DNA of 64,000 nucleotides. It comes from an uncultured Chloroflexia bacterium (lineage in GTDB: Bacteria; Chloroflexota; Limnocylindria; Limnocylindrales; CSP1-4). A program made the translations under genes and the position numbers. Under the pieces are notes generated by a model. It searched no databases and was not told the DNA's origin. It saw nothing but the letters and a program-made list of their open reading frames with translations. Below are positions 1 through 25,273 of this stretch, piece by piece. The stretch covers positions 10,199-74,198 of the forward strand of contig CAWCMN010000005.1 in assembly GCA_963796715.1 (NCBI GenBank), written 5' to 3'. How positions within the stretch are numbered: position 1 is the first letter of the stretch; the number at the start of each line of letters is the position of its first letter.

Positions 1-100
1 CTCGACGGATGCGACCAAACGATTGGCTTGCCGTGCTCAGTCGGTAGCCCGTGGCGTCATTGCCGCGCTGCAGGAGCGCATCGGTCGTCATCGCCTTCAT
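1..100 (-). CDS. Partner gene of the DUF6036-like nucleotidyltransferase, N-terminal part (runs off window)
   Basis: ATG at 100 (MKAMTTDALLQRGNDATGYRLSTASQSFGRIRR...), duplicate of the ORF starting at 714, just downstream of the stop at 116. Confidence 0.55.
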   Translation of the reverse strand, partial: MKAMTTDALLQRGNDATGYRLSTASQSFGRIRR

Positions 101-115
101 TGTGGGACGTCGTCT

Positions 116-494
116 CTATTCGAACAATGACTCGACAGTGAGTTGCGTTTGGATTCGCAAGCGGCTCTCGGGGACATAGCGTTCGACGATCTGCATCGCC
201 TCATTGACATCCTGGAGTCCGAGCTCGTCACGAAGCCTGACCAGATCCTCGTGATCCCCCGGACGTGCGGCGTCTGCCTTCATGGCAAACACGTAGTCGG
301 CGCCGGGTACATACAGCCGGAGGCCCGGGTACTCGGCCCAGAGATGTTGCGGCGGCTGGGTATAGATGAACCCCTTGGCCGCGTCGTTGAGCCAGTCGGC
401 GGGCAGCGCGTGCCGTTTCGCGACGATGACGGCCGCCTCCCGCATCGGCTTTGGATCGCTTCCCACGATCGCGTCGACATCCTTGGTGGCCGTC
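116..494 (-). pseudogene. 5'-truncated DUF6036-like nucleotidyltransferase, copy 1
   Basis: TKDVDAIV...WLNDAAKGF...YVFAMKADAARPGDHEDL resembles DUF6036/AbiEii-like NTases. The N-terminus (GG motif) is missing because of the duplication junction at ~494. Confidence 0.65.
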
Positions 495-714
495 GGCGAT
501 CTGGGTCATCCTCTGAGGTTGCGATCGGCTCCATGACGATGCGCGCACGCTGGTCTGGCTCCGCACGATGCCAGTCATCCAGGAAGTCGCCGATCGCGAT
601 CCATGGGTCTTCGCCTCGACGGATGCGACCAAACGATTGGCTTGCCGTGCTCAGTCGGTAGCCTGTGGCGTCATTGCCGCGCTGCAGGAGCGCATCGGTC
701 GTCATCGCATTCAT
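495..714 (-). pseudogene. 3'-truncated partner (putative antitoxin-like) gene
   Basis: MNAMTTDALL...EDPWIAIGDFLDDWHRAEPDQRARIVMEP...EDDPDRRR, then runs out of frame into the duplicated NTase sequence. Confidence 0.55.
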
Positions 715-729
715 TGTGGGACGTCGTCT

Positions 730-1130
730 CTATTCGAACAATGACTCGACAGTGAGTTGCGTTCGGATTCGCAAGCGGCTCTCGGGGACATAGCGTTCGA
801 CGATCTGCATCGCCTCATTGACATCCTGGAGTCCGAGCTCGTCACGAAGCCTGACCAGATCTCGTGATCCCCCGGACGTGCGGCGTCTGCCTTCATGGCA
901 AACACATAGTCGGCGCCGGGTACATACAGCCGGAGGCCCGGGTACTCGGCCCAGAGATGTTGCGGCGGCTGGGTATAGATGAACCCCTTGGCCGCGTCGT
1001 TGAGCCAGTCGGCGGGCAGCGCGTGCCGTTTCGCGACGATGACGGCCGCCTCCCGCATCGGCTTTGGATCGCTTCCCACGATCGCGTCGACATCCTTGGT
1101 GGCCGTCCTACGAGGATGGATCTCCAGGGC
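730..1130 (-). pseudogene. DUF6036-like nucleotidyltransferase, copy 2 (5'-truncated and frameshifted)
   Basis: Same sequence as copy 1 with a 1-nt deletion near 861. Its 5' end abuts or overlaps the stop of the HD-GYP gene, so there is no proper N-terminus. Confidence 0.65.
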
Positions 1131-2544
1131 GCACGGCCTCGGCGGGTGTGGGCAGCGCCTGGGGGCGAGTGGCCACCGCTTCGGCACGCGCGGCCGCGGC
1201 CTGGCCGAGCAGGGGGATCGGCCGCGGCGCCACGGGCGGGCGGCCCGGGTCGGCCACGTTGCGCACCCAGTCGGTCCGGGCGAAGGCATCAAGCACGATC
1301 GGGTCGAACTGGATCCCCGCGTATCGCCGCAGCTCCAGGAGGGCCTGTTCGCGCGTCAGCGGCTGGAGGCGGTACGGGCGAGCGGCGGTCATGGCCTCGA
1401 ACGCGTCCGCGACATGCAGGATGCGCGCCAGCTTGGGGATGGCCTCTCCGACGAGGTGGTCGGGATAGCCCGAGCCGTTGTACCACTCGTGGTGGTGGCG
1501 GATGATCGGCAGCTCGGGCTTGAGGCGTTCGACTTCCATGATGATGTCGGCACCCAGGACCGGGTGCATGTTCATCTGGATGCGCTCTTCCTTGTTGAGG
1601 CGCTCAGGCTTCAGCAGGACCGCGTCCGACACCCCGATCTTGCCGATGTCGTGCAGCAGCCCGCCCCACTCCAGGGCCTCGATCTCCGCCTCGGAACACC
1701 CCATTTGCCGACCGATGGTGACCGCGATCTCCTGCACGTTCTTGCTGTGGTTGGACGTGTAGGGGTCCTTCTTGTCCACAGCCGACGCCAGAGCCCGGAT
1801 CGTCTGCGTGAACATGCTCCGGATCTCAACAACGTTCTTGAACGCTCCACGAGTCGAGGCTAGCGGCAGAGCGAAGAGAAGCGTCGCCCACCACCCGATC
1901 GTGGCGTAGACATAGGCGACGAGCCAAGCAAGGGGGCCAAGTGCCAACATGCTGGTGGCCACGAACCGGATGTCGCCGCTAAGCACCGAGCGCACCGTCA
2001 CTCCGTCCCGAGCGACGACCGCCGCAATTGTTAGGAACGTGTTCGAGGCTGTAGTAGGCCGCTCCCGCGACAACCACGGCGAACAAAGTCAGCAACGTTG
2101 CTGCGAAGGCGTCCGCCTGCAATGAACCGGTAGAGAAGCGCTGCGGCGATTGCGGGCAGGATGACCTCGCCGTGGTTGTAGACGGTTCCGTACCACGGGA
2201 TATCCGCCGCGGAGCTCCCGGGTTTCGGTTGTACCAATCGCCGCAACCAGACCACCGACAGCTGGCCCGCCCAACATCCCAGCCGCGAGAAGCGCGCTAC
2301 CTGAGACGCTGACCTGCGTACCCGCGTGGCAATTGATTGGAGACGCAGAGGAGCAGGGTCGCCACGATCCAGAAGGAGACGCCTTCGACTCCGAAATCCA
2401 GGGGCAATCGGGAATACAACAAGAGCAGCAGCCAGCGCAAACACGCTGGCTGCTGCTACGAATGCGATAAGTGCTCTGAGCGCGGCTCTCACGGTGGCGT
2501 GACGCTCCGTAGCATCGACGCCGTAGTCGTAAGGTGCCGATCAT
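1108..2544 (-). pseudogene. Membrane-anchored HD-GYP c-di-GMP phosphodiesterase, 5' half frameshifted
   Basis: Catalytic domain intact in ORF 1108-2073 (KDPYTSNHS, LLHDIGKIG, HHHEWYNGSGYP). Hydrophobic N-terminal segments are split over ORFs 2031-2492 and 2089-2544. GGAGGA RBS before ATG 2544. Confidence 0.8.
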
Positions 2545-2574
2545 CCGTTCCTCCGTAGGCCGAAAGTACCGGTG

Positions 2575-2658
2575 CTAGAGCAGGTGCACTCCGGCTCCGC
2601 CGGCCAACAGCACAGCTATGAGCGCCGCCAGCATCAAGGAAGCCCAATCGGGCGGCAC
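2575..2658 (-). CDS. Putative small hydrophobic peptide (VPPDWASLMLAALIAVLLAGGAGVHLL; alternative start ATG 2634)
   Basis: Hand translation: TAG at 2575-2577, GTG at 2658, ATG at 2634. Signal-peptide-like hydrophobic core, between the regulator and the HD-GYP gene. Confidence 0.35.
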   Translation of the reverse strand: MPPDWASLMLAALIAVLLAGGAGVHLL

Positions 2659-2890
2659 GCATCCTCATCTGACTACCAGGGCTTGAGAGTCATGGCCCGA
2701 CTCCTACTTGGGCCGCTGCTCTGAGAGAGAGCGGACGACCTGCGCTAGCCGTCGGTCGGGTTGCACTATCCGCTCAGCATCGCCCCAAGTGCCCAATTCA
2801 GGCGATGCGTCGACGCGCCCGTACGTTGTCCCGGTCTGGTACTTGAGTACTAGACCCGAGCAGGACTTTAGGAGTGGCCACGAAACCGGG

Positions 2891-5800
2891 TCAATACGCC
2901 GATCGGCGTATGGTTCCCCCTCGAACCGGCTCGATCTGCTCTAGTCGATCAGGCTCCACGCCCAGCTCCTCGCGGCTCACGGCTGCGTACCTTACGTATT
3001 GCTCGGCGGCAGCTGACCGCGAATCCGCCCCTAGGTAAAGGGCCACTAGTGATCTGTGAAGCTCCGGATTGCGAGGCTCCAAGGCAAGAGCTCTCTGAGT
3101 AAGGGCGAGCGCGGCGCTGACGTTGCTATGCCTGAGCAGCTGGGCCCTCGCCTTGTCGACGAGGTGCAGGAACACTGTGGCTAGTTGCTGACGCCAGTCC
3201 TGAGCCCACTCCTCGTACTCGAACTCCGGCGCGAACGAGCCGGAGTAATGGTCGATCGTCGCCAACAACCGTGCTGGCTCAGGGGCCGGGTCCTTTGACA
3301 AGGCCACGGCATCGGCGTGGAAGGTGACGCTATCAGCTACGACTAGGGCTTCATCCAGAGCCAGCGTTTCGCCTTCGTAGCGTACGTACTCGACTGAGGT
3401 GCCCACCTCATACCAGGGGTCGACATCCCGCCTCAGGAAGTAAAGGGTCTGGTTCAGGCTGTTGGCGGCTGCATCTGGGCTCAGATCAGGCCACAGGTCG
3501 TCGAGAACCCGCTCGCGTGTGGCCGTCTGGCGTGGGCTCGCCACCAGATAGAGCAGAAGGGATGCGGACTTTCGCCGCATCCGTCCGATGCCCACTGTGC
3601 GATCACCAATCGAAAGGTTGCCATTGCCCAGATCGTGGACCTGCAGGACTGGGCTAGTTCGCCTGACTAGATCCCTGCCCACGCCATTCCAGCCCGTCCC
3701 TTTGAGGTATTTGCGAGCGAACGCAGTGACCAGTGGAACATCCTCGCCCGAGCCGCAGCGATCGAGTACTAAGGCCGCCTGGCGCGAATTCGGGGTAAGC
3801 CCCGCTCCCAGTTGCTTCCGGAAGACCGGAAGCCACCGCTCGGGAAGCTCAGCGACGCTGTCGAGTAGCTCTGGCGGAAGTGTCGGAAGGACTTCCAGAT
3901 GGGCAGCCACCACCTCGGCAACTTCTGGAAGGCTTAGGCGTCCGGCCTCGCGCGCATCCTTGATCGCCTGAGCCAGGGCCTGCGGCTGTCGCGTTGCGGC
4001 CGCTAGGACAACCCTCAGCCTCGACGGCCACAGGCCGTTTCCTTCTTGGTAAGCGAGCTGCAAAGCTGACTGGGCCAGGTCGGTGGCCTCAGTGACCGAA
4101 CCACTAAGTAGTGAGGCCATGGCCGCGATGCTTGTGGCAGCCACCTGTGTGCCCGGGCCTTGAAGGGTAGCGTCGCGGCAGACGGCGAGCGCGCGAGTTG
4201 GATCCTCGCCGACTGCCCGGCGTGCATCCGCCAGGATGAAGGTCGACGTTGCAAGCGAGCTGACGCGGCCGCTCGTGATGTCGGAACGGATGCTTTCAAG
4301 CAGTGTGGTGGCGGTCGCTCCAGCGCCGAGCACGGTGGAGAGGTATGCGACCTCTAGCGCGGCGTCGGGCGGAATGACCCTCGCCTTCCGGACGGCCGCG
4401 AGATGTTCATCCATTGTCGCAAAGAGCCCCAGCTCCCCGGCGCATGCCGCCAAGGTGGCATGGGTGCCGAACGCCTCGCCAACGCCGAAGCCTTCCTCGC
4501 CGTAGAGGCCCAGCGCTCGCTCGCCGGCCGCGTATGCCTCGCGAAAGCGGCCGCGCGCCCGCTCCACCTCCATCAGGTTGTGCAGTGAGACTGCCGCGAA
4601 GAAGCCCAGGCCCTGCGCCTCGGAATCACCGGCCAGTCGTTGCAATTGTTCGGCCGTCTCGGCCAGCGGTTGCGCGAACCCGGGCAGCCCTACGGCAAGC
4701 AGAGCGCTTGCCACCGATTGGATGAGGACGGGAGACTCCGGATCGACGGCGATTTCGTTGTAGGCGCGGCGTGCACGCTCCAAATCTCCTAGCTGCCAGG
4801 CCAGCTTCATTTGAGAAAGCCTTACGAGACCACGACTCGCTGATGGGGTGGCGCCAAGGTCGATGCCGTCTAGGCGTCGCGCTGCCTCGTCGGGGTCTCG
4901 AGCCCTTAGGGCCCGGAGGGCGAGGATGACCTGGACGGCTGGCGCGTCCGGTTCGGTCGGGAAGCGGTCGAGGAGGTCGGCGGCGACGCCCCAGGCGCCA
5001 GTGCCGATGGCCACGAGCAGTGAATCACTCATGACGCGGACAGCCTCGGCGGGCTGGCTCGCCTCCAGGTAGTGGTAGCAGGCGGTGAGCCAGTCGTCCG
5101 CCTCGGCGGCGGCCGCGACCCGAAGGTGACGCTGGCGGATGACCTCCGCGGGCGTGTCATCGGCGAGTTGCCGCAGCAGGAACTCGCGCAGCAGCGGGTG
5201 GAAGCGGTAGCCGCGGCCGGACTCGCCGCGTCGGCCCATGAGCCCGAGATCGTCGGCGGCTTCGATCCACCCTCGCGCCGTCTGGATCGTGGGCGGTTCC
5301 GGGTCCTCCGCGAAGATCGCGGCGACCAGCGCGGGCACGATCCGGCGGAGGATCGCGGAGCCGATGACGAACCGACGAAGGTTCGGCGTCAACTCGCGGA
5401 GGACCTCCTGGGCCAGGAAGTCGTAGATGGGGCCCTGTGTGCCGCTCATGGCGCGCGTGAAGGCGCGGATCTCCAGGGCGGAACGCCCACGGATCGACGA
5501 CCGGAAGAGCTGCAGGCTGGCCGCCCATCCTTCCGTGCGCTGCTCGACCTGATCCAGCACGTCTGGCTCGAGTGGTTGCTGGTACGTCTCGCTGAACAGC
5601 ATGTCGGTCTCAGCGCGCGAGAAGCGCAGATCGTCCGTCGTCAACTCGGCGACCTGGCCCTGGGCCATCGGGCGGGCCAGGTCCAGGTCGGGTCGGCGGC
5701 GGCTGGCGATCAGCACGGATAGGCCGGATGGCGCCTCGCGCAGGAGGCGGGCCACGATCTCGCGGGCGTCCGGACTCAGATCGACGAGGTGGTAGTCGTC

Positions 5801-6418
5801 GAGGATGAGCAGGGCGGGCTGATCGACGTGCGCGACGTCCGCCAGCAGGGCATCGATGATGCGGTCGCGCGACTGGTCGGCCGTGGCCAGCTGGTCGAGC
5901 AGCCCCAGGGTGGCCTGGCCGAAACCCGGGTCCAGCTCCCGGTAGGCGGCGATGAGGTAGTTGGTGAACGAGATCCAGTCCGCGTCAGTGTGGTCGAGCT
6001 TGAACCACAGGACCGGCACTTCCGAACGGCGGCCGTAGTCCGCCAGGAGGGTCGTCTTGCCATAGCCGGCCTCCGCGATCACCAGCGTGAGGCGTTGCCG
6101 CGTGTGATGCCGTAGCCAGTCGATGAGGCGCGCGCGGGTGAGCGTCTCCTCGCGCAGCAGCGGCGGCGTGATCTTGGTGCGCGAGATGGAGCGAAAACCC
6201 GCGGGCCGCTCGCTCGAGGGCGAAAGATCCGGCTCCGCGGGCGCTGGAGACGGCATGACCTGCACCACCGATCGGTCAGGGCTCCAGGCGGACGGCTGGG
6301 CGGCCGGTTCGAGGCGCCTGGCTGGCGGCGCCAAGGCTACCGCGGGGCGTTCGGCGGTGTCGAGGGGTGCAGTCCGGTGGGCATCGGGCATGTCGGCAGT
6401 CTGCCGAACGGCGCTCAC
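2891..6418 (-). CDS. Large MalT-like STAND ATPase/TPR transcriptional regulator with C-terminal SARP/BTAD domain
   Basis: Walker A AEAGYGKTT, Walker B LLILDDYH, GW..YRFHPLLREFL winged-helix motifs; C-terminal RERVLDDLWPD...ANSLNQTLYFLRR and YSGSFAPEFEYEEW. Exact start uncertain. Confidence 0.88.
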   Translation of the reverse strand: MSAVRQTADMPDAHRTAPLDTAERPAVALAPPARRLEPAAQPSAWSPDRSVVQVMPSPAPAEPDLSPSSERPAGFRSISRTKITPPLLREETLTRARLIDWLRHHTRQRLTLVIAEAGYGKTTLLADYGRRSEVPVLWFKLDHTDADWISFTNYLIAAYRELDPGFGQATLGLLDQLATADQSRDRIIDALLADVAHVDQPALLILDDYHLVDLSPDAREIVARLLREAPSGLSVLIASRRRPDLDLARPMAQGQVAELTTDDLRFSRAETDMLFSETYQQPLEPDVLDQVEQRTEGWAASLQLFRSSIRGRSALEIRAFTRAMSGTQGPIYDFLAQEVLRELTPNLRRFVIGSAILRRIVPALVAAIFAEDPEPPTIQTARGWIEAADDLGLMGRRGESGRGYRFHPLLREFLLRQLADDTPAEVIRQRHLRVAAAAEADDWLTACYHYLEASQPAEAVRVMSDSLLVAIGTGAWGVAADLLDRFPTEPDAPAVQVILALRALRARDPDEAARRLDGIDLGATPSASRGLVRLSQMKLAWQLGDLERARRAYNEIAVDPESPVLIQSVASALLAVGLPGFAQPLAETAEQLQRLAGDSEAQGLGFFAAVSLHNLMEVERARGRFREAYAAGERALGLYGEEGFGVGEAFGTHATLAACAGELGLFATMDEHLAAVRKARVIPPDAALEVAYLSTVLGAGATATTLLESIRSDITSGRVSSLATSTFILADARRAVGEDPTRALAVCRDATLQGPGTQVAATSIAAMASLLSGSVTEATDLAQSALQLAYQEGNGLWPSRLRVVLAAATRQPQALAQAIKDAREAGRLSLPEVAEVVAAHLEVLPTLPPELLDSVAELPERWLPVFRKQLGAGLTPNSRQAALVLDRCGSGEDVPLVTAFARKYLKGTGWNGVGRDLVRRTSPVLQVHDLGNGNLSIGDRTVGIGRMRRKSASLLLYLVASPRQTATRERVLDDLWPDLSPDAAANSLNQTLYFLRRDVDPWYEVGTSVEYVRYEGETLALDEALVVADSVTFHADAVALSKDPAPEPARLLATIDHYSGSFAPEFEYEEWAQDWRQQLATVFLHLVDKARAQLLRHSNVSAALALTQRALALEPRNPELHRSLVALYLGADSRSAAAEQYVRYAAVSREELGVEPDRLEQIEPVRGGTIRRSAY

Positions 6419-6501
6419 CAGCCGCTTAGCTGCGCCTCATGCCCTCACCGGAGAAGCGGTGCACGGGGGCACCATCACGCGCTCGCCGGCGCGCGAACGG
6501 A

Positions 6502-6807
6502 TCAGGCGGGCGCCGACGCCGAGGTCGTGGCGAGGCGCACCACGTCGAAGCAGGAGCTGCAGTACACCGGCCGATCATTGCGCGGCGCGAACGGCACCAT
6601 GGCCTGCTGCCCGCACCGGGCACAGACGGCCGCGTGGTACTCGCGGGCCGCGCCGGCCGTGCGGTTCTGCTTGGCCACGGCGCGGCAGGACGTGCAGCGC
6701 TGCGGGTCGTTCTGAAGACCTTTGCTGGCAAAGAAGGCCTGCTCACCAGCGGAGAAGAGGAACGAATCCCCGCAATCCCGGCAGGTGAGTGTCCGATCCT
6801 GGTACAC
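6502..6807 (-). CDS. Zinc-ribbon domain protein (zf-trcl + CxxC-x17-CxxC type)
   Basis: YQDRTLTCRDCG..F.FSAGEQAFFASKG...RC..CR and CARCG...VPFAPRNDRPVYCSSCF; GTG start at 6807 after a GGGAG-rich RBS. Confidence 0.88.
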   Translation of the reverse strand: MYQDRTLTCRDCGDSFLFSAGEQAFFASKGLQNDPQRCTSCRAVAKQNRTAGAAREYHAAVCARCGQQAMVPFAPRNDRPVYCSSCFDVVRLATTSASAPA

Positions 6808-6979
6808 CCTCTCCCGACCTCCCTCGGCGGCGGCACAGCCGTCGCGGTCCGTCCCGGTTCCGGGTCGGCGGGTCGGGCGCTCGCCCTCCATCGGTCGCGT
6901 CCGTGGCCACTGTCGTCCCTTGGCCGGATTGAGGCGCGACTATAGGCACGCCGCGCGAGCGTGCGCAAGATGGAAAACG

Positions 6980-14001: not shown

Positions 14002-14433
14002 ATGCTCGAGACCGAGCCGCAGACCCAGCCGCAGCCGCTGATCAACATCCCGCTCGCCCCGAGCCAGCCGGATCTCGTGCACCTGACGGACGCGGCGGCC
14101 AGCAAGCTGCGTGAGTTGACGGCCCAGGAGCCGAATCCCGCGATGGGCCTGCGCGTGTACGTGTACAGCGGTGGCTGTTCGGGGTTCCGCTACGGGATGA
14201 TGCTGGAGGACCAGCCCACGGCCGACGACGTGACGGTCAGCAGCAACGGCGTCACGGTCTACGTCGACGGCCAGAGCACGCAGTACCTCACGGGCTCGGA
14301 GATCGACTACGTCGACACGCTGATGGGCGCGGGCTTCACGGTCAACAACCCCAACGCCGTCTCCGCCTGCGGCTGCGGCAGCAGCTTCCGCACGGCCGAC
14401 TCCGAGGGCGCGCCGGGGGCCTGCCACCACTGA
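14002..14433 (+). CDS. A-type Fe-S cluster assembly carrier (HesB/IscA/ErpA family)
   Basis: GGCSGFRY, IDY...LMGAGF...NPNA...CGCGSSF. Confidence 0.94.
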   Translation: MLETEPQTQPQPLINIPLAPSQPDLVHLTDAAASKLRELTAQEPNPAMGLRVYVYSGGCSGFRYGMMLEDQPTADDVTVSSNGVTVYVDGQSTQYLTGSEIDYVDTLMGAGFTVNNPNAVSACGCGSSFRTADSEGAPGACHH

Positions 14434-18668: not shown

Positions 18669-19316
18669 TCAGCTCGCGCTGGAGACCGTCGCCAGGTCTT
18701 CTGGCCGGTCGGCGGCGCCCGCGGAGCCGGCGGTCGCCGCCGCTAGGCGCCCGGGTTCCCACTCGGTGGACAGGATGCCCATCTGGACCTCGTCGACGTA
18801 GTGGCCGTCGCGCCAGATCGCCTCGCGCAGGCGACCCTCGACGCGGAAACCGGCCTTCTGGTACGCCCGGATGGCCCGCTCGTTGAACGCGAACACACTC
18901 AGGCCGACGCGATGGAGGCCCAGGCGCCGGAAGGCGTGGTCCAGCATCAGCTCGGTCGCCTCGGTGCCCATGCCGCGGCCCCACGCGTCGCGTTCCCCGA
19001 TCGTGATGTGGAACAGGGCCGACCCGTTGTCCGGGTCGAGTGCGCTGAAGGTGGTCAGGCCGATCAGGCGATCCCCCAGCCGCTCATGGATGGCGTAGGC
19101 CATGGCCTCGGGGGCGATGAGCCGGGAGCGGAAGAACTGGGCCACCTCGTCGGTGCTCATGGGTCGCGTCTGGTAGCGGGTCAGGCGGGCCAGCTCGGGG
19201 TCGTGGTACCACCGCACCACGGCCGGCAGGTTCTCCTGGCGATGCCGCCGCAGGGTGACCGACCGGCCCTGGATGGCCGCGGGATGCCACTGGTCGCGAT
19301 CGAACTCGGCCGACAT
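18669..19316 (-). CDS. GNAT N-acetyltransferase (RimJ/RimL family)
   Basis: WGRGMGTEA, LHRVGLSVFAFNERAIRAYQKAGFRVEGRLRE. Confidence 0.92.
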   Translation of the reverse strand: MSAEFDRDQWHPAAIQGRSVTLRRHRQENLPAVVRWYHDPELARLTRYQTRPMSTDEVAQFFRSRLIAPEAMAYAIHERLGDRLIGLTTFSALDPDNGSALFHITIGERDAWGRGMGTEATELMLDHAFRRLGLHRVGLSVFAFNERAIRAYQKAGFRVEGRLREAIWRDGHYVDEVQMGILSTEWEPGRLAAATAGSAGAADRPEDLATVSSAS

Positions 19317-19344
19317 GGGAGGGCGATGCTATACCATCGCTCGG

Positions 19345-21030
19345 ATGCGCCGTTGGAGCGAGACGGCCGAGCGCGTGGCGGCCACGAGCCGCACCTCGGA
19401 GAAGGTCCGCATCCTGGCCGAGTACCTCCGCACCCTCACTCCCGCGGAGCTGCCGACCGCCGTCACGTTCTTCACTGGTCGGCCCTTCCCCGAGCGCGAT
19501 CCGCGCGTCCTGGGCCTGGGCTGGGCGGCCATCGGTGAAGCCGTGCAGGCCGAGGCGGACGCCGAACCGGGTGCGCTCGGCCGGGCCTACGACCGCTCAT
19601 CCGACCTTGGCCAGGCGGTGTTCGACCTGTTCAGCGAGTCCAGGCGGCGCCCCTCGGGTGAGCTCCCGACCGTCACCGATGTGCGCGACGCGTTCGCCTC
19701 CATCGCCACCGCCAGCGGCCCCGCCGCCAAGTCCGTGCCGCTGCGGACGCTCCTCTGGCGCAGCGACCCGCTGGTCGCCAAGTACCTCGTCAAGGTCATG
19801 AGCGGCGACATGCGGATCGGCCTCCGTGAGGGCAACCTCGAGGCCGCCGTCGCCGCCGCGTTCGACCGGCCCCTGCCGGCCGTGCAGTGGGCGGGCATGC
19901 TGACCGGCGACCTCGGCCACACGGCCGAATTGGCGCGCGACGACCGCCTGGACGAGGCCGAGCTGACCCTCTTCCGCCCGCTCAAGTCGATGCTCGCGTC
20001 GCCGGCCGCGGACGTGGCCGAGGTGACCGCACGGCTTGGCACGCCCGTCTGGGTCGAGGACAAGTACGACGGCATCCGCGCCCAGCTGCACCGGCTGGCC
20101 GGCGAGACGCGCCTGTACAGCCGCGACCTGCACGACGTCTCGGGGCAGTTCCCGGAGGTCATCGCCGCGGCGGGTGACCTGGCCTGGTCGGGCATCCTCG
20201 ACGGCGAGCTGCTGGGCTGGCGCGACGGCACGGCCCTGCCCTTCCAGCAGCTGCAGGGGCGGCTCGGCCGCAAGGGCCCGAGCGCGGCGGTGCTGGCCGC
20301 GACGCCGGTGATCTTCGTGGCCTTCGACCTGCTGGCCAGCGGCGCAGGCGCCGCGACCCCCGAGCCGCTGCTGCGCGCGCCGCTGCGGGAGCGCCGCAAG
20401 CGGCTGGAGGGGCTCGGGCTCGGCGAGCGGCCCGGCTTCGGCCTGTCGCACCTGGAGACGGCCGCCTCGGAGGCCGAGCTCGACGAGCGCTTCACGGCGG
20501 CCCGTGCACGGGGCAACGAGGGGCTCATGGTCAAGGATCCCGCCAGCGGCTACTCGCCGGGCCGCCGCGGCTTCGGGTGGCTCAAGCTCAAGCGGCCGCT
20601 GGCGACGCTGGACTGCGTCGTGGTGGGCGTGGAGGTCGGCCACGGGAAGCGCCACGGCGTCCTCTCCGATTACACCTTCGCCGTGCGCGACGACCGGCCG
20701 GACGCGCCGCATCCCCTGGCCACGATCGGCAAGGCCTACAGCGGCCTGACGGACGCCGAGCTGGCGGACATGACGCGCTGGTTCAGCGACCACACCATCT
20801 CGATCCACGGCCGCTACCGCGTGGTGGAGCCCACCGTCGTGGTGGAGGTAGCTTTTGACGTGGTCCAGCGCTCGCGCCGCCACGCCTCCGGCTATGCGCT
20901 GCGGTTCCCCCGCATCGCCCGCCTGCGCGACGACAAGGGCCCCGACGAGATCGACCGGCTGTCCACCGTGGCGGCGCTCGAGGCCCGCCTCGCCGCCGGC
21001 GCCCACGTGGTGGTCGAGACGACCGCCTGA
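19345..21030 (+). CDS. ATP-dependent DNA ligase (DBD + adenylation + OB domains)
   Basis: Motif I VEDKYDGIR, ILDGE, FVAFDLL, EGLMVK, WLKLK, LRFPRI; start placed 7 nt after TACCAT. Confidence 0.95.
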   Translation: MRRWSETAERVAATSRTSEKVRILAEYLRTLTPAELPTAVTFFTGRPFPERDPRVLGLGWAAIGEAVQAEADAEPGALGRAYDRSSDLGQAVFDLFSESRRRPSGELPTVTDVRDAFASIATASGPAAKSVPLRTLLWRSDPLVAKYLVKVMSGDMRIGLREGNLEAAVAAAFDRPLPAVQWAGMLTGDLGHTAELARDDRLDEAELTLFRPLKSMLASPAADVAEVTARLGTPVWVEDKYDGIRAQLHRLAGETRLYSRDLHDVSGQFPEVIAAAGDLAWSGILDGELLGWRDGTALPFQQLQGRLGRKGPSAAVLAATPVIFVAFDLLASGAGAATPEPLLRAPLRERRKRLEGLGLGERPGFGLSHLETAASEAELDERFTAARARGNEGLMVKDPASGYSPGRRGFGWLKLKRPLATLDCVVVGVEVGHGKRHGVLSDYTFAVRDDRPDAPHPLATIGKAYSGLTDAELADMTRWFSDHTISIHGRYRVVEPTVVVEVAFDVVQRSRRHASGYALRFPRIARLRDDKGPDEIDRLSTVAALEARLAAGAHVVVETTA

Positions 21031-21037
21031 GGCGGCG

Positions 21038-21883
21038 TCAGCGGTCGACTGGCAGGTCCGCGCGCGCTCCCCAATCGGACCACCCGGCGTCGTACACGGC
21101 CACGTCGGGATAGCCAAGCAGCCCCAGCACGAAGGCCGCCTTGGCGGCGGCGATGCCGCTGCCGTCGTACGTCACGACGCGGCGTCCCCGCTGCACGCCG
21201 GCATCGGCGAAGAGCCGCCCGCAGGTCTCGGCATCGTGGAAGGTCTGATCGCCGGGAACCGTGAGCAGGGTGGCCGGGACATTCAGCGCGCCGGGGATGT
21301 GACCGAGGCGCACGGCGTTGCCACCCTGGCCGCGGTATTCCGCGGGCGCCCGCACATCCACGAGGTCGACGTCGCGGGAGCCCAGGAGCGCACGCACGTC
21401 GCCGGTCGAGAGCACGCGGCGGGGCTCCATGCGTGGCGTGAAGGTCGCCGGCTCTGGCGACGCGTGGGCCGCGGTGGAGATGGGGCGGCCGCTGCTGCGC
21501 CACGCCACCCACCCGCCATCGAGGACGCGGACGCTCTCGAAGCCGTAGACCTGCAGGCTCCACCACACGCGTCCGGCGTAGAGCGAGGCGGTGTCGTCAT
21601 ACAGCACGGCCGTCATCCCGTCGCCGATCCCGGCGCTGCCAACGGTCCGGGCCACAGCCTCCGGCCCGGCCAGCTGGAACGGCACGGCCTGGTCGCGGTC
21701 GACGAGCTCGTTGGCCCAGTCCAGGAAGGTGGCCCCGGGGATGTGGCCTTGCGCGTGCAGCTGGCGGGCGGAGCCATCCACGCGATAGCGGCAATCGACC
21801 ACCCGCACACCCTGGCGACCCAGGTGCTCGGCCAACCAGTCGGGGCTCGCGAGGAGCTCTGGTCGAGCGTAGGTGCCGCTCAT
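21038..21883 (-). CDS. Sulfurtransferase (double rhodanese, SseA/TST-like)
   Basis: GHIPGA in both domains, LDGGW, YDAGWSDW. The second active-site loop reads YDGSG, i.e. Asp where Cys is usual. Confidence 0.88.
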   Translation of the reverse strand: MSGTYARPELLASPDWLAEHLGRQGVRVVDCRYRVDGSARQLHAQGHIPGATFLDWANELVDRDQAVPFQLAGPEAVARTVGSAGIGDGMTAVLYDDTASLYAGRVWWSLQVYGFESVRVLDGGWVAWRSSGRPISTAAHASPEPATFTPRMEPRRVLSTGDVRALLGSRDVDLVDVRAPAEYRGQGGNAVRLGHIPGALNVPATLLTVPGDQTFHDAETCGRLFADAGVQRGRRVVTYDGSGIAAAKAAFVLGLLGYPDVAVYDAGWSDWGARADLPVDR

Positions 21884-21904: not shown

Positions 21905-23071
21905 ATGGTCGCGCCCTTTCAGCCCGACCCCGACAAGGTCGCGACGATCCGGGCGGCCCTCCCGGCCACGGGGGCGGGCATCTACCTGGACACCGCCACG
22001 GCCGGCCCGCTCTCCCTCGACGGCCTGCAGGCCATGCGCGAGCTCCTGTCGTACGAGGAGCGGGTCGGGCGCGCCGACGTCGACTCGCGCGAGGCCTTCG
22101 ATGAGCGGGCCGCGGAGGCCGGCGCCGTCCTGGCGACCATGATCGGGGCCGATCCGGACGCCGTCGAGCTGGTCCCCGGCACCACCGTGGGCATCGCGTG
22201 GGCGGCCGGCCTGCCCGCCTGGCGACCGGGCCAGCGGATCGTCACGACCGACGGGGAGCATCCCGCGGTGCTGGCGATGCTCGACGCCCTCGCGGCCCAC
22301 CGCGACCTCCAGCTCGTGCGGGTGCCCGTGGGCGAGGCGACAGACGACGAGCTTGTCGCCCGCTTCGGATCCGCCATCGATCGGCGGACCGGCCTGCTCG
22401 CGGTGAGCCACGTGACGTGGGACACCGGTACGGTCCTGCCGGTCGCGCGCCTGGCCGCGTTGGCCGGAGGCGTCGGGGCGTGGTCGGTGATCGATGGCGC
22501 CCAGGCGGTCGGGGCGATCCCCGTGACGGTGCCGGAGATCGGCGCCGACGTCTACGCGTTCTCCGGCTACAAGTGGCTGTTGGGGCCGCACGGCGTGGGC
22601 GGCCTGTGGCGTTCGACCCGAGCCCTGGCGGCACCGAAGCTCCCTGTCACAACGCTCCACCGGCCGTCGGTGGTGGCGCTGGGCCGCACCGTCGGCTGGC
22701 TGGAGATGCACGTGGGCCTCTCCTGGGCGCTCGAGCGTTCCACCCGTCTCGCTGCTGCCACGGCGGCGTCCCTTGCGGGCATCGAGGGCGTGGAGCTGCT
22801 GACGCCGGACCCGCCCGGGGCCACGCTCGTCACGTTCCGCATCGCCGGCTGGCCGGCGCCCGTCGCCCGCGCGGCCCTGGCCCGGCGCGTATTCGCCATC
22901 TGCGAGGCCCTCGAGACGCGTGACGCGATCCGCGCCAGCGTGGCCTGGTTCAACACCTCCGCGGAGCTCGAGCGGTTCGCCGGCGCCGTCGCCGAGCTGG
23001 CTCAGGCGACGCCGTCGACGCTGGCGGACCGGCCGCGTCTCGTGGTGCTGCCGGCGGATGGCGGCCGCTGA
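21905..23071 (+). CDS. Class V PLP aminotransferase (cysteine desulfurase-like)
   Basis: IYLDTATAG, TDGEH, SHVTWDTG, DGAQ, SGYKWLLGP (PLP lysine). Confidence 0.88.
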   Translation: MVAPFQPDPDKVATIRAALPATGAGIYLDTATAGPLSLDGLQAMRELLSYEERVGRADVDSREAFDERAAEAGAVLATMIGADPDAVELVPGTTVGIAWAAGLPAWRPGQRIVTTDGEHPAVLAMLDALAAHRDLQLVRVPVGEATDDELVARFGSAIDRRTGLLAVSHVTWDTGTVLPVARLAALAGGVGAWSVIDGAQAVGAIPVTVPEIGADVYAFSGYKWLLGPHGVGGLWRSTRALAAPKLPVTTLHRPSVVALGRTVGWLEMHVGLSWALERSTRLAAATAASLAGIEGVELLTPDPPGATLVTFRIAGWPAPVARAALARRVFAICEALETRDAIRASVAWFNTSAELERFAGAVAELAQATPSTLADRPRLVVLPADGGR

Positions 23072-23490: not shown

Positions 23491-24096
23491 GTGCCAGCTG
23501 GCACCGTTTCGTACAGCGTGCGAGGGTACGTTCGGGGTATACCCGGGGCCGCGACCGGCCGTATCCTGCGGTGGAGAGTCATACCAACAGGGGAGTCGAC
23601 AAGCTTGAGTCCACGCGCCACGCGGCCGCCCAAGGAGGGCCCTGCCCAGCCGTCGACCCGTCGGCGGCCGTCGCTGCCCACCACCCGGGGACGGAAGGCG
23701 GCCGCCACCGATGGCGCGTCGCCGAGCGCCGCCGTCGCCCCCGAGTCGGGCGCCGCGAGCACGGCCGACGCGGCTGCCACCGAGACGACGCGCGAGCCCA
23801 TCTCCTGGATCGAGATGTCCCAGCCCGCCGCCTCCGTGCCGCACATGGCCATGCCCAAGCTCATGGGCCAGCCCGCCTACGCGCGGCCACCGCGGCCCCT
23901 GGCGGTCGCAACGCCCCGGCCCCTGGATCCCGATGACCTGCCGATCGAGGCGTTCCGCAGCGAGGAAGACCAGGAGCTGGCGACCCGCCTGGCACACCGC
24001 GGCGCCGACCTCGACGCGGCCCAGGGCGTCACGCTCCGTCCCTCGAGCGTCGGCGGGCTGCGGGGCATCGCCGGACGGCTCCTGGGGCGCGGCTGA
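23491..24096 (+). CDS. Hypothetical low-complexity protein (start uncertain)
   Basis: Only gap-filling ORF with a plausible C-terminal half (MAMPKLMGQPAYARPP...PLDPDDLPIEA). Confidence 0.5.
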   Translation: MPAGTVSYSVRGYVRGIPGAATGRILRWRVIPTGESTSLSPRATRPPKEGPAQPSTRRRPSLPTTRGRKAAATDGASPSAAVAPESGAASTADAAATETTREPISWIEMSQPAASVPHMAMPKLMGQPAYARPPRPLAVATPRPLDPDDLPIEAFRSEEDQELATRLAHRGADLDAAQGVTLRPSSVGGLRGIAGRLLGRG

Positions 24097-24124
24097 CCCT
24101 ACAATGACCGCCGGCCTCGTCGGC

Positions 24125-24200
24125 GGGGGAGTAGCTCAGCGGTGAGAGCAGGAGGCTTATACCCTCCATGTCGGTGGTTCGAATCCATCCTCCCCTACCA
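24125..24200 (+). tRNA. tRNA-Ile, anticodon UAU (TAT)
   Basis: Complete 76-nt cloverleaf: acceptor GGGGGAG/CTCCCCT, D stem GCTC/GAGC, anticodon stem GGAGG/CCTCC with loop CTTATAC, T arm GGTGG-TTCGAAT-CCATC, discriminator A plus encoded CCA. TACAAT at 24100-24105 upstream. Confidence 0.9.
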
Positions 24201-24280
24201 ACACGCAGCGGGCCCTCAGAACCTTTTCAGGAGCGGTGACGAAACTGGGGTAACGAGCCCAGGAAAGGAACCGTTACCTC

Positions 24281-25273
24281 GTGGATCTCTATCCCGCACC
24301 CCAGGACCCCCGTCCGGAGCCCACCGAGCCGGCTGATACGCCGACCGGCTTCACCCCCGGCACCCCGCCGAACCCGCCGTCCACGCCCCTCTGGTGGTCG
24401 GCGCCGGCCCTGCCGCCGACCCAGCCGGTCCTCACGGGCCAGCCACCGCGGGCGCCCCGCAGGGGTGGCGGCTTCGTCTCCCTGTTCATGGCCGCCCTGC
24501 TCGGCGCCCTGCTGGCCTCCGGGGGCACCTTCGTGACGCTCGAGGCCGTTGGCGTCGGCGCCGCCCCAACGGCCGCCCCGGCGGCCACGACGAGCGCCAA
24601 CTCGGCCGACCAGGCGTCGTCCAAGACGGCCGCCACTGGCGACCCCGACGCGGACATCGTGGCCGCGGCCGCCAAGGTCAGCCCGGCCGTCGTGACGATC
24701 ACGACGCAGTCAACGTCCAGCAACGGCTTCGGGCGTGGCTTCCAGACGACCGGCGTCGGCTCGGGCACGATCTTCAACAGTGCGGGGTGGATCCTGACCA
24801 ACCGCCACGTCGTCGAGGGCGCCACGAGCGTGTCCGTGCAGCTCGCCGACGGACGCACGCTCACCGGCACCGTCTATGGCGAGTCGTCCACGACCGACCT
24901 GGCCATCGTCAAGATCGACGCGACCGGCCTGCCGACGGCCGCCGTCGGCGACTCCACGACGCTGGTCGTCGGCCAGCGGGTCATCGCCATCGGCGATCCG
25001 CTGGGTGACTTCCAGAGCACCGTGACGACCGGCATCGTGTCCGGCCTGAATCGCTCGATCGACGTCGAGAACGAAAGTCTGACGGGCCTCATCCAGACCG
25101 ATGCCGCGATCAACCCTGGCAACAGCGGCGGTCCGATGCTTGACACGGCCGGCGAGATCGTGGGCATCAACACCGCCACGGCCTCGACGGCGCAGGGCAT
25201 CTCCTTCGCCATCCCGGTGGCCGTCGCGAAGCCCCTGATGGCGGCCGCCCTGGCCGGTCAGCCCATCCCGTAG
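24281..25273 (+). CDS. Membrane-anchored trypsin-like (HtrA-type) serine protease without PDZ
   Basis: Triad motifs ILTNRHVV, TDLAIVK, DAAINPGNSGGP; ends shortly after the protease domain. Confidence 0.9.
   Translation: MDLYPAPQDPRPEPTEPADTPTGFTPGTPPNPPSTPLWWSAPALPPTQPVLTGQPPRAPRRGGGFVSLFMAALLGALLASGGTFVTLEAVGVGAAPTAAPAATTSANSADQASSKTAATGDPDADIVAAAAKVSPAVVTITTQSTSSNGFGRGFQTTGVGSGTIFNSAGWILTNRHVVEGATSVSVQLADGRTLTGTVYGESSTTDLAIVKIDATGLPTAAVGDSTTLVVGQRVIAIGDPLGDFQSTVTTGIVSGLNRSIDVENESLTGLIQTDAAINPGNSGGPMLDTAGEIVGINTATASTAQGISFAIPVAVAKPLMAAALAGQPIP

Follow-up and report, generated by a model that had tools for sequence, protein, structure and literature searches.

The window, by which we mean the whole 64-kb stretch of DNA analysed here, contains a single tRNA gene, on the forward strand, which ARAGORN identifies as tRNA-Ile with anticodon tat. 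On one flank of this gene are an ATP-dependent DNA ligase, a two-domain rhodanese, a cysteine-desulfurase-family protein and two small hypothetical genes, and on the other an HtrA-like S1C protease, an SH3-like protein, a large AAA-TPR-LuxR regulator and a luciferase-like oxidoreductase (Table 1). Elsewhere the window encodes DnaB, LexA, ribosomal protein L9, DinB, Ku, RpiA and PntAB. Its GC content is ~73%, with GC3 around 0.9 and even GC around the tRNA, and the window holds no integrase, no phage gene and no break in composition at the tRNA. With core neighbours, conserved synteny and even GC, the tRNA does not have the character of a mobile element, and its locus is core chromosome.

Table 1. 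Features at and around the tRNA gene, in coordinates of the window.
Feature	Coordinates	Strand	Remarks
ATP-dependent ligase gene	19255-21030		Intact in the window
TACAAT, candidate -10 element	24100-24105	+	19 nt before G1; TGA stop of the preceding ORF 4 nt 5'
tRNA-Ile(UAU) gene	24125-24200	+	76 nt including encoded 3' CCA; from ARAGORN, Rfam RF00005, identity in relatives and covariation
G1·U72 wobble pair	24125 with 24196	+	Acceptor stem GGGGGAG/CTCCCCT
Anticodon loop C32-U33-U34-A35-U36-A37-C38 (CTTATAC)	24156-24162	+	Direct sequence reading; family invariance
Anticodon TAT	24158-24160	+	Direct sequence reading
Discriminator A73	24197	+	Direct sequence reading
Encoded CCA	24198-24200	+	Direct sequence reading
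Conserved 80-nt spacer, tRNA to protease GTG start	24201-24280	+	Alignment of relatives; in the same RNA contigs as the tRNA
S1C (HtrA-like) protease gene	24281-25273	+	GTG start; 3' of the tRNA

The Rfam model RF00005 matches the gene over its full length (1-71/71) with a score of 69.1 bits (gathering score 29; E 5e-13). ARAGORN and Rfam thus agree with the first-pass annotation, which had described an intact tRNA with a UAU anticodon (Ile), and the details that it gave (loop CTTATAC, G1:U72, A73 and an encoded CCA) all read in the sequence as claimed. Membership of RF00005 is backed both by a score above the cloverleaf threshold and by compensatory substitutions in the helices. The gene itself encodes T34-A35-T36, constant across relatives and reads, which places it with the encoded-UAU isoleucine tRNAs ('tRNA-Ile3'); the C34 of a TilS substrate, as found in tRNA-Ile2(CAU), is absent, and T34 stands in every copy and every read. 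In addition, A73, A35, U36 and A37 (the t6A site) are compatible with isoleucine identity, these positions being known from work in E. coli as determinants for IleRS or for t6A.

Some features of the surrounding DNA deserve mention in their own right. Positions 1-6900 of the window are 63-68% GC, against 70-76% elsewhere, and encode an HD-domain protein and an 1175-aa AAA/BTAD regulator; this segment may be more recently acquired DNA. The ligase gene, intact in the window and in one relative (L003), is split into 2-3 fragments in two others (L001:6009-6749 and L002:5420-6772), both long ENA contigs, and these splits are probably long-read frameshift errors and not real pseudogenes. Upstream of the tRNA lies a set of sulfur-transfer genes, for a HesB/IscA-like Fe-S assembly protein, a mercaptopyruvate-sulfurtransferase-like rhodanese and a cysteine-desulfurase-family protein (14002-14433, 21038-21883 and 21905-23071), syntenic in L019; the last of these proteins matches only the N-terminal two-thirds of its family models. 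We considered thiolation of U34 by the adjacent cysteine desulfurase-like and rhodanese genes and set the idea aside as pure speculation, adjacency being all that speaks for it and both proteins falling below the curated family cut-offs.

As to the host, the protease has its homologues in uncultured bacteria from soil, and most of those with a label are assigned to Chloroflexota or to Candidatus Limnocylindrales, Limnocylindrales being an order of the class Limnocylindria in the phylum Chloroflexota. DNA nearly identical to the window was found only in soil, peat and rhizosphere metagenomes. The host clade is thus probably one of uncultured, high-GC soil Chloroflexota of the class Limnocylindria. 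One relative (L004 / P0006, GCA_035622975.1) carries, in one source, the label 'Candidatus Sulfotelmatobacter sp.' (Acidobacteriota), the other labelled relatives being Chloroflexota/Limnocylindrales, and that label is likely a taxonomic misnaming or the product of a mixed bin.

The tRNA is conserved in sequence, in position and in anticodon. Six relatives (L001-L004, L170 and L171) were picked by way of the neighbouring protease gene, and the choice was therefore blind to the tRNA. In L001-L004, whose proteases are 97%, 88% and, in two assemblies, 86% identical to that of the window, gene order is shared, the tRNA-Ile(tat) is 100% identical, and in these close relatives, as in the window, it sits 80 nt 5' of the protease. 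In L170 and L171, where protease identity has fallen to 72% and 73%, the tRNA-Ile(tat) is still kept 5' of the protease with few substitutions. More distant protease homologues (L005 and L172-L175, 54-58%) are paralogues beside a two-component system and not the syntenic locus; they were set aside as uninformative on retention of the tRNA. A further set came from a search for the TAT anticodon itself, a choice that is blind to any loss of the tRNA: among at least 120 tRNAs listed, the four closest to that of the window (L006, L019, L111 and L096, Candidatus Limnocylindrus) are all from Chloroflexota, and in L019 and L111 the ligase, rhodanese, aminotransferase and hypothetical genes precede a TAT tRNA in the same order as in the window, with proteins that are 43-64% identical.

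In an alignment of seven distinct sequences of this family, all 147 stem cells are paired (147/147) and 9 of the 21 stem pairs show compensatory changes, values that none of 500 shuffles reaches; when the pairing partners are slid, the paired share drops to 44-61%. Loop CTTATA, G1·U72, A73 and CCA are invariant in all seven members, and position 38 is C or T. Carriers of the family include GCA_035622975.1, the assemblies with JALYGJ010000146, CAWGTR010000006, CAWKHN010000011 and JBIIGQ010000006, and the ENA contigs ERZ25039458:contig_10816 and ERZ25039489:contig_92583. The same TAT gene is present in independent ENA, NCBI, JGI and Logan assemblies, and in four soil and peat DNA metagenomes the contigs vary at stem positions and never at 24158-24160; one such variant, G>T at 24155, is the state found in L019. 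Neither CAT nor TGT, either of which would have told against the first reading, occurs at the anticodon in the DNA and RNA contigs checked, and the orthologous, syntenic tRNAs of the relatives all read TAT. Taken together, conservation and covariation rule out a pseudogene, a recent point mutation or an assembly error as the explanation of the window tRNA: it is intact and under purifying selection, with its position and anticodon kept over deep divergence.

For transcription of the gene, the evidence is more mixed. The TACAAT hexamer had been called the tRNA's own -10 box. The hexamer is indeed present and is conserved in the close relatives and in one metatranscriptome variant (at a loose end of contig X27), but its role as a promoter does not follow as readily: a scan with the sigma-70 consensus finds no two-hexamer promoter ahead of the tRNA, and of the four metatranscriptome contigs two start 5' of TACAAT. 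In L006, L019 and soil variants, TAGGAT or TAGCAT boxes stand 6-9 nt 5' of the tRNA and fit the TANNNT form of a -10 element. On these sequence comparisons, it is plausible that TACAAT is a promoter element of the tRNA, and we retain it as a candidate. RNA contigs from four metatranscriptomes cover the tRNA and the spacer up to the protease start (about 24090-24310), with the anticodon unchanged and nothing from the flanking coding regions. These are Logan contigs of depth 3-5, from runs chosen for holding words from this stretch of the window, with DNA carry-over possible, and they speak to presence and not to quantity. One of them, X23, is a complete library insert, consisting of 24090-24212 and 13 unmatched nt bounded by Illumina adapters. 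That the contigs join the tRNA, the spacer and the first protease codons suggests a tRNA-mRNA co-transcript, and the spacer, across which RNA contigs reach from 24108 to 24310, is probably the leader of the protease, with a ribosome-binding site (GGAAAGGAA). The spacer was also considered as a structured RNA and rejected, with a fold z of 0.05 against shuffles and no Rfam family.

The codon that such a tRNA would read is very rare in this genome, but it is used. In 51 window genes called by GC3, ATA occurs 7 times, ATT 5, ATC 590 and ATG 284 times per 17,022 codons, so that AUA stands at 0.41 per thousand and AUG is ~40x commoner; by extrapolation to a few megabases, the genome would contain hundreds of AUA codons. 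At the very few ATA sites that could be aligned, the residues of homologues are L, L and I at one site and I, I and V at a second, while E. coli PntB has M; these are consistent with isoleucine and not decisive. U34 would pair with the A of AUA by ordinary pairing, and no conversion of cytidine to lysidine would be needed. IleRS would charge the tRNA by way of A35, U36, A37/t6A and A73; we infer isoleucine charging from these four positions and from the lack of any other plausible identity.

How such a tRNA might avoid AUG is a separate matter. Competition from tRNA-Met probably holds down misreading of AUG, a codon ~40x as frequent as AUA, and the loop context of C32 with a pyrimidine at 38, or a modification of U34, may also limit such misreading. 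A pyrimidine at 38 is present in 63/119 distinct TAT tRNAs versus 62/256 other tRNAs of the same loci, and in only 2/37 CAT and 2/14 GAT tRNAs of those loci. The p-value of 8e-8 is overstated, the counts being phylogenetically non-independent, but the difference inside the AUN box gives a concrete lead. In a metagenome scan, A38 was found in 40/40 CAT and GAT tRNAs. Pyrimidine 38 may, on this sequence pattern, tune codon binding together with C32, and the C32/Y38 and G1·U72 context offers a testable idea of what might keep a U34 with little or no modification from reading AUG.

Overall, we hold with good confidence, from the sequence and its conservation, that the product is a functional minor tRNA-Ile which decodes AUA through a UAU anticodon present in the gene itself, and that this gene is chromosomal and vertically inherited. 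At the same time, the role of this tRNA within the cell admits of two readings, which differ over TilS. In the first, which we favour with modest confidence, it is the principal or only reader of AUA, tilS and tRNA-Ile2(CAU) having disappeared, as happened in Bifidobacterium and M. mobile. We lean this way because one would not expect a redundant tRNA, serving so rare a codon, to have kept its place and an unchanged anticodon over such divergence. By tblastn, nothing in the 64-kb window or in 125 fetched loci (~1 Mb, where the genome is several megabases) matches E. coli TilS; Pfam and NCBIfam searches detect no TilS, IleRS or MnmE/G domain among 50 window ORFs, and ileS and a CAT tRNA are likewise absent from the window and the ~1 Mb of fetched loci, again against a genome of several megabases. 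The TilS entries in the PDB are from E. coli, Geobacillus and Aquifex only.

In the second reading, tilS and a lysidine-converted tRNA-Ile2(CAU) are kept and the UAU tRNA is an auxiliary reader of AUA. This redundant arrangement, which rivals only the claim that the tRNA is the sole decoder, is a serious contender, though we put it somewhat short of an even chance. TilS is described as conserved in nearly all bacteria (PMC8007984, PMC12514573) and is kept in a 67% GC bacterium in which AUA stands at 0.6 per thousand (PMC12514573), co-occurrence of tilS with a TAT tRNA gene is documented (PMC3575796), and the host genome here is large, free-living and not reduced. Set against this are the synteny, the invariant anticodon and the compensatory stem changes over deep divergence, which exceed what would be expected of a dispensable duplicate serving 0.4 codons per thousand, and the metagenome scan, in which no CAT tRNA with the acceptor signature of the family was found in contigs >67% GC, an argument of little weight because Ile2 need not share that signature. 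Both outcomes, tilS lost and tilS kept, were allowed for by the first-pass annotation and are documented in other bacteria, and neither would therefore be a new kind of system.

Two further explanations fare much worse. The tRNA could carry an amino acid other than isoleucine (Met, for instance, or that of a donor tRNA with a mutated anticodon), so that AUA would not be read as isoleucine. AUA means methionine in many mitochondria, one ATA site aligns with a Met of E. coli PntB, and comparison over the full sequence does not discriminate among E. coli Ile2, Ile1, Met, Ala and other tRNAs (50-55/76 identical). Nonetheless, A73, A35, U36 and A37 fit isoleucine identity, close homologues have I, L or V at other ATA sites, the same anticodon together with A73 recurs in 117/124 of the TAT tRNAs surveyed, from many phyla, and we know of no AUA reassignment in free-living bacteria; recoding is accordingly very improbable. 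Least credible of all is that the gene is no stable feature of the lineage, being mobile or phage cargo, or the result of a recent C34-to-T mutation or an assembly error in a tRNA-Ile2/Met(CAT) gene: TAT tRNAs do ride on mobile DNA elsewhere, as on a Streptomyces plasmid beside tRNA-Leu(taa) (L025), and two family-like TAT tRNAs lie on viral-classed contigs of 53-54% GC (L178, L179), but TAT recurs in the independent assemblies, synteny with housekeeping genes persists down to 43-64% protein identity with no integrase or composition break, and a search of 2.9 million viral contigs with the 5' half of the family and TAT returned 4 matches, none high-GC.

Having set these alternatives aside in favour of a vertically inherited tRNA-Ile(UAU), we can ask where it came from. 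A metagenome scan with the 5' half of the family and a non-T at position 34 recovered 40 tRNAs, 27 CAT and 13 GAT and none in contigs >67% GC; much of their similarity to the family was forced by the scan pattern itself. Some of the CAT matches resemble E. coli tRNA-Ile2, one of them, L162, differs little from L006 up to position 33, and several have G1·U72. On this sequence resemblance, the TAT family may plausibly descend from tRNA-Ile2(CAU) through a change of C34 to T; a firm claim of such descent was rejected, with identity of the TAT family to E. coli Ile2, Met, Ile1, Ala and others flat at 50-55/76. As a separate observation, CAT tRNAs with the acceptor of the family (GGGGGAG...CTCCCCT, with G1·U72 and A73) are found in L149, L161, L164 and L165, which share an identical tRNA on contigs of 57-66% GC, and also in L151 and L159, on contigs of 34-37% GC. 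Sister lineages could have their Ile2(CAU) equivalents in these genes, which might otherwise be elongator Met tRNAs.

The first-pass annotation held that UAU anticodons are rare. Published counts are indeed low, at 19 bacterial species with TAT tRNA genes (PMC4013482, 2014) and 17 bacterial genomes in which tRNA-Ile3(UAU) takes the place of Ile2(CAU) (PMC8450103, 2021), but the statement does not hold up in our scan of 185,579 species genomes, one genome per species: a narrow pattern (TAT anticodon, GAGC D-stem half and GGTTCRANTCC T-loop) matches at least 120 of them (L006-L125), and ARAGORN calls every one listed tRNA-Ile(tat). By record titles counted by hand, the 120 matches listed comprise 63 from the candidate phyla radiation/Patescibacteria (25 of them Saccharibacteria), 9 Planctomycetota, 8 Gammaproteobacteria (MAGs), 7 Archaea (MAGs), 5 Chloroflexota, 4 Actinomycetota, 12 of other labelled taxa (including Dormibacterota) and 12 unlabelled; the order of the scan being unspecified, these counts are not frequencies. 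The window tRNA is thus less exceptional than had been supposed. In the literature searched, we found no work linking lysidine or tilS to Chloroflexota, Patescibacteria or Saccharibacteria, and the terms Ile3 and TAT led only to eukaryotic work.

Individual matches add observations of their own. In a Chloroflexi MAG (JACQUR010000158; L046:4587-4656), a perfect 70-nt palindrome (35 + 35) lies directly 5' of the TAT tRNA and ~36 nt from the contig end, and is probably a fold-back assembly artefact. The two tRNAs on IMG/VR contigs (L178:5073-5148 and L179:7653-7728) are of the Limnocylindrus type, with G1·U72 and T38, and the contigs may be prophages beside a tRNA or misclassified host fragments. 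In Streptomyces (plasmid NZ_CP108729 of Streptomyces sp. NBC_00989, L025:3053-3572; also L011 and L050), tRNA-Ile(tat) adjoins tRNA-Leu(taa) on a plasmid and a Lys(ctt)-like tRNA on another contig. The A-ending codons that are rarest in high-GC genomes, AUA and UUA, have their tRNAs side by side here on mobile DNA; UUA is the developmentally regulated bldA codon of Streptomyces.

Regardless of which reading of the TilS question is correct, what is new here is a lineage-level tRNA-Ile(UAU) in soil Chloroflexota; bacterial UAU tRNAs as a kind were already known. We can go further only tentatively. It is possible, though we would not yet give it even odds, that a whole clade of abundant, free-living, large-genome soil Chloroflexota of 70-75% GC (Limnocylindria and their relatives) has dropped TilS and reads AUA only by way of tRNA-Ile(UAU), with a fidelity signature of its own (an invariant G1·U72, and Y38 replacing the A38 that nearly all CAT and GAT tRNAs of this codon box have). 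The trait would then possibly be an old one in this region of the bacterial tree, as UAU apparently dominates in the CPR and occurs in Dormibacterota. Telling AUA from AUG is a long-standing question in the study of the genetic code, and bacteria are generally taken to need TilS and to have it almost universally; a stable UAU tRNA-Ile in an abundant soil phylum, which is apparently also very common in the CPR, would make the direct route a mainstream alternative, where it has passed for a peculiarity of some reduced genomes. If this is true, annotation and completeness checks that expect tRNA-Ile2(CAU) and tilS would mis-score these lineages, and as an antibacterial target TilS would lack universality. 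If tilS is present, the finding reduces to another example of a documented redundancy.

Comparison with known systems places the tRNA more precisely. In eukaryotes, cytosolic tRNA-Ile(UAU) has pseudouridine as the modification of its anticodon uridines. A Bacillus subtilis suppressor of a tilS deletion has reportedly mutated its tRNA-Ile1 gene from G34 to U, with weak reading of AUG. With this suppressor, survival of a bacterium in the absence of TilS is demonstrated (PMC3919564); the strain is laboratory-made, whereas the window tRNA is a natural, conserved gene. The eukaryotic tRNA likewise encodes its UAU, but with modified anticodon uridines (PMC8007984) and an intron. In Archaea, another domain again, an encoded UAU replaces the reader with a modified cytidine in the tRNA-Ile3(UAU) of Nanoarchaeum equitans and Korarchaeum cryptofilum (PMC8450103).

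Among bacteria, one close counterpart is M. mobile, and the first-pass background on lysidine, TilS and this organism agrees with the published account (PMC3575796). Its tRNA-Ile(UAU) is unmodified, is charged by its own IleRS and reads AUA; the organism is without tilS, an Arg in IleRS (R865, at the site of E. coli W905) accepts UAU, and the ribosome limits misreading of AUG (PMC3575796). Like the window tRNA, M. mobile tRNA-Ile2(UAU) has a TAT gene and A73 and is a single minor isoacceptor, and it reads AUA without lysidine. The M. mobile genome, however, is reduced and AT-rich, whereas the host here is a large-genome, 73% GC, free-living soil organism with AUA at ~0.4 per thousand. If tilS is kept here, the arrangement would be that of Cyanothece PCC 7424, Ferrimonas balearica and Lactobacillus casei, which have both tilS and tRNA-Ile(TAT) (PMC3575796); those cases, however, are single named species or strains, whereas the tRNA described here is syntenic across deep divergence. 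If tilS is absent, Bifidobacterium is the closest analogue. There, as in Neorickettsia, a eukaryote-type IleRS accompanies the loss of tilS (PMC3575796), and the replacement of the CAU/lysidine route is lineage-wide and vertical, in non-reduced, high-GC Terrabacteria like the host here. Bifidobacterium belongs to another phylum, and its absence of tilS and its IleRS2 type are documented; the signature of G1·U72 with pyrimidine 38, by contrast, is described here only for the Chloroflexota family.
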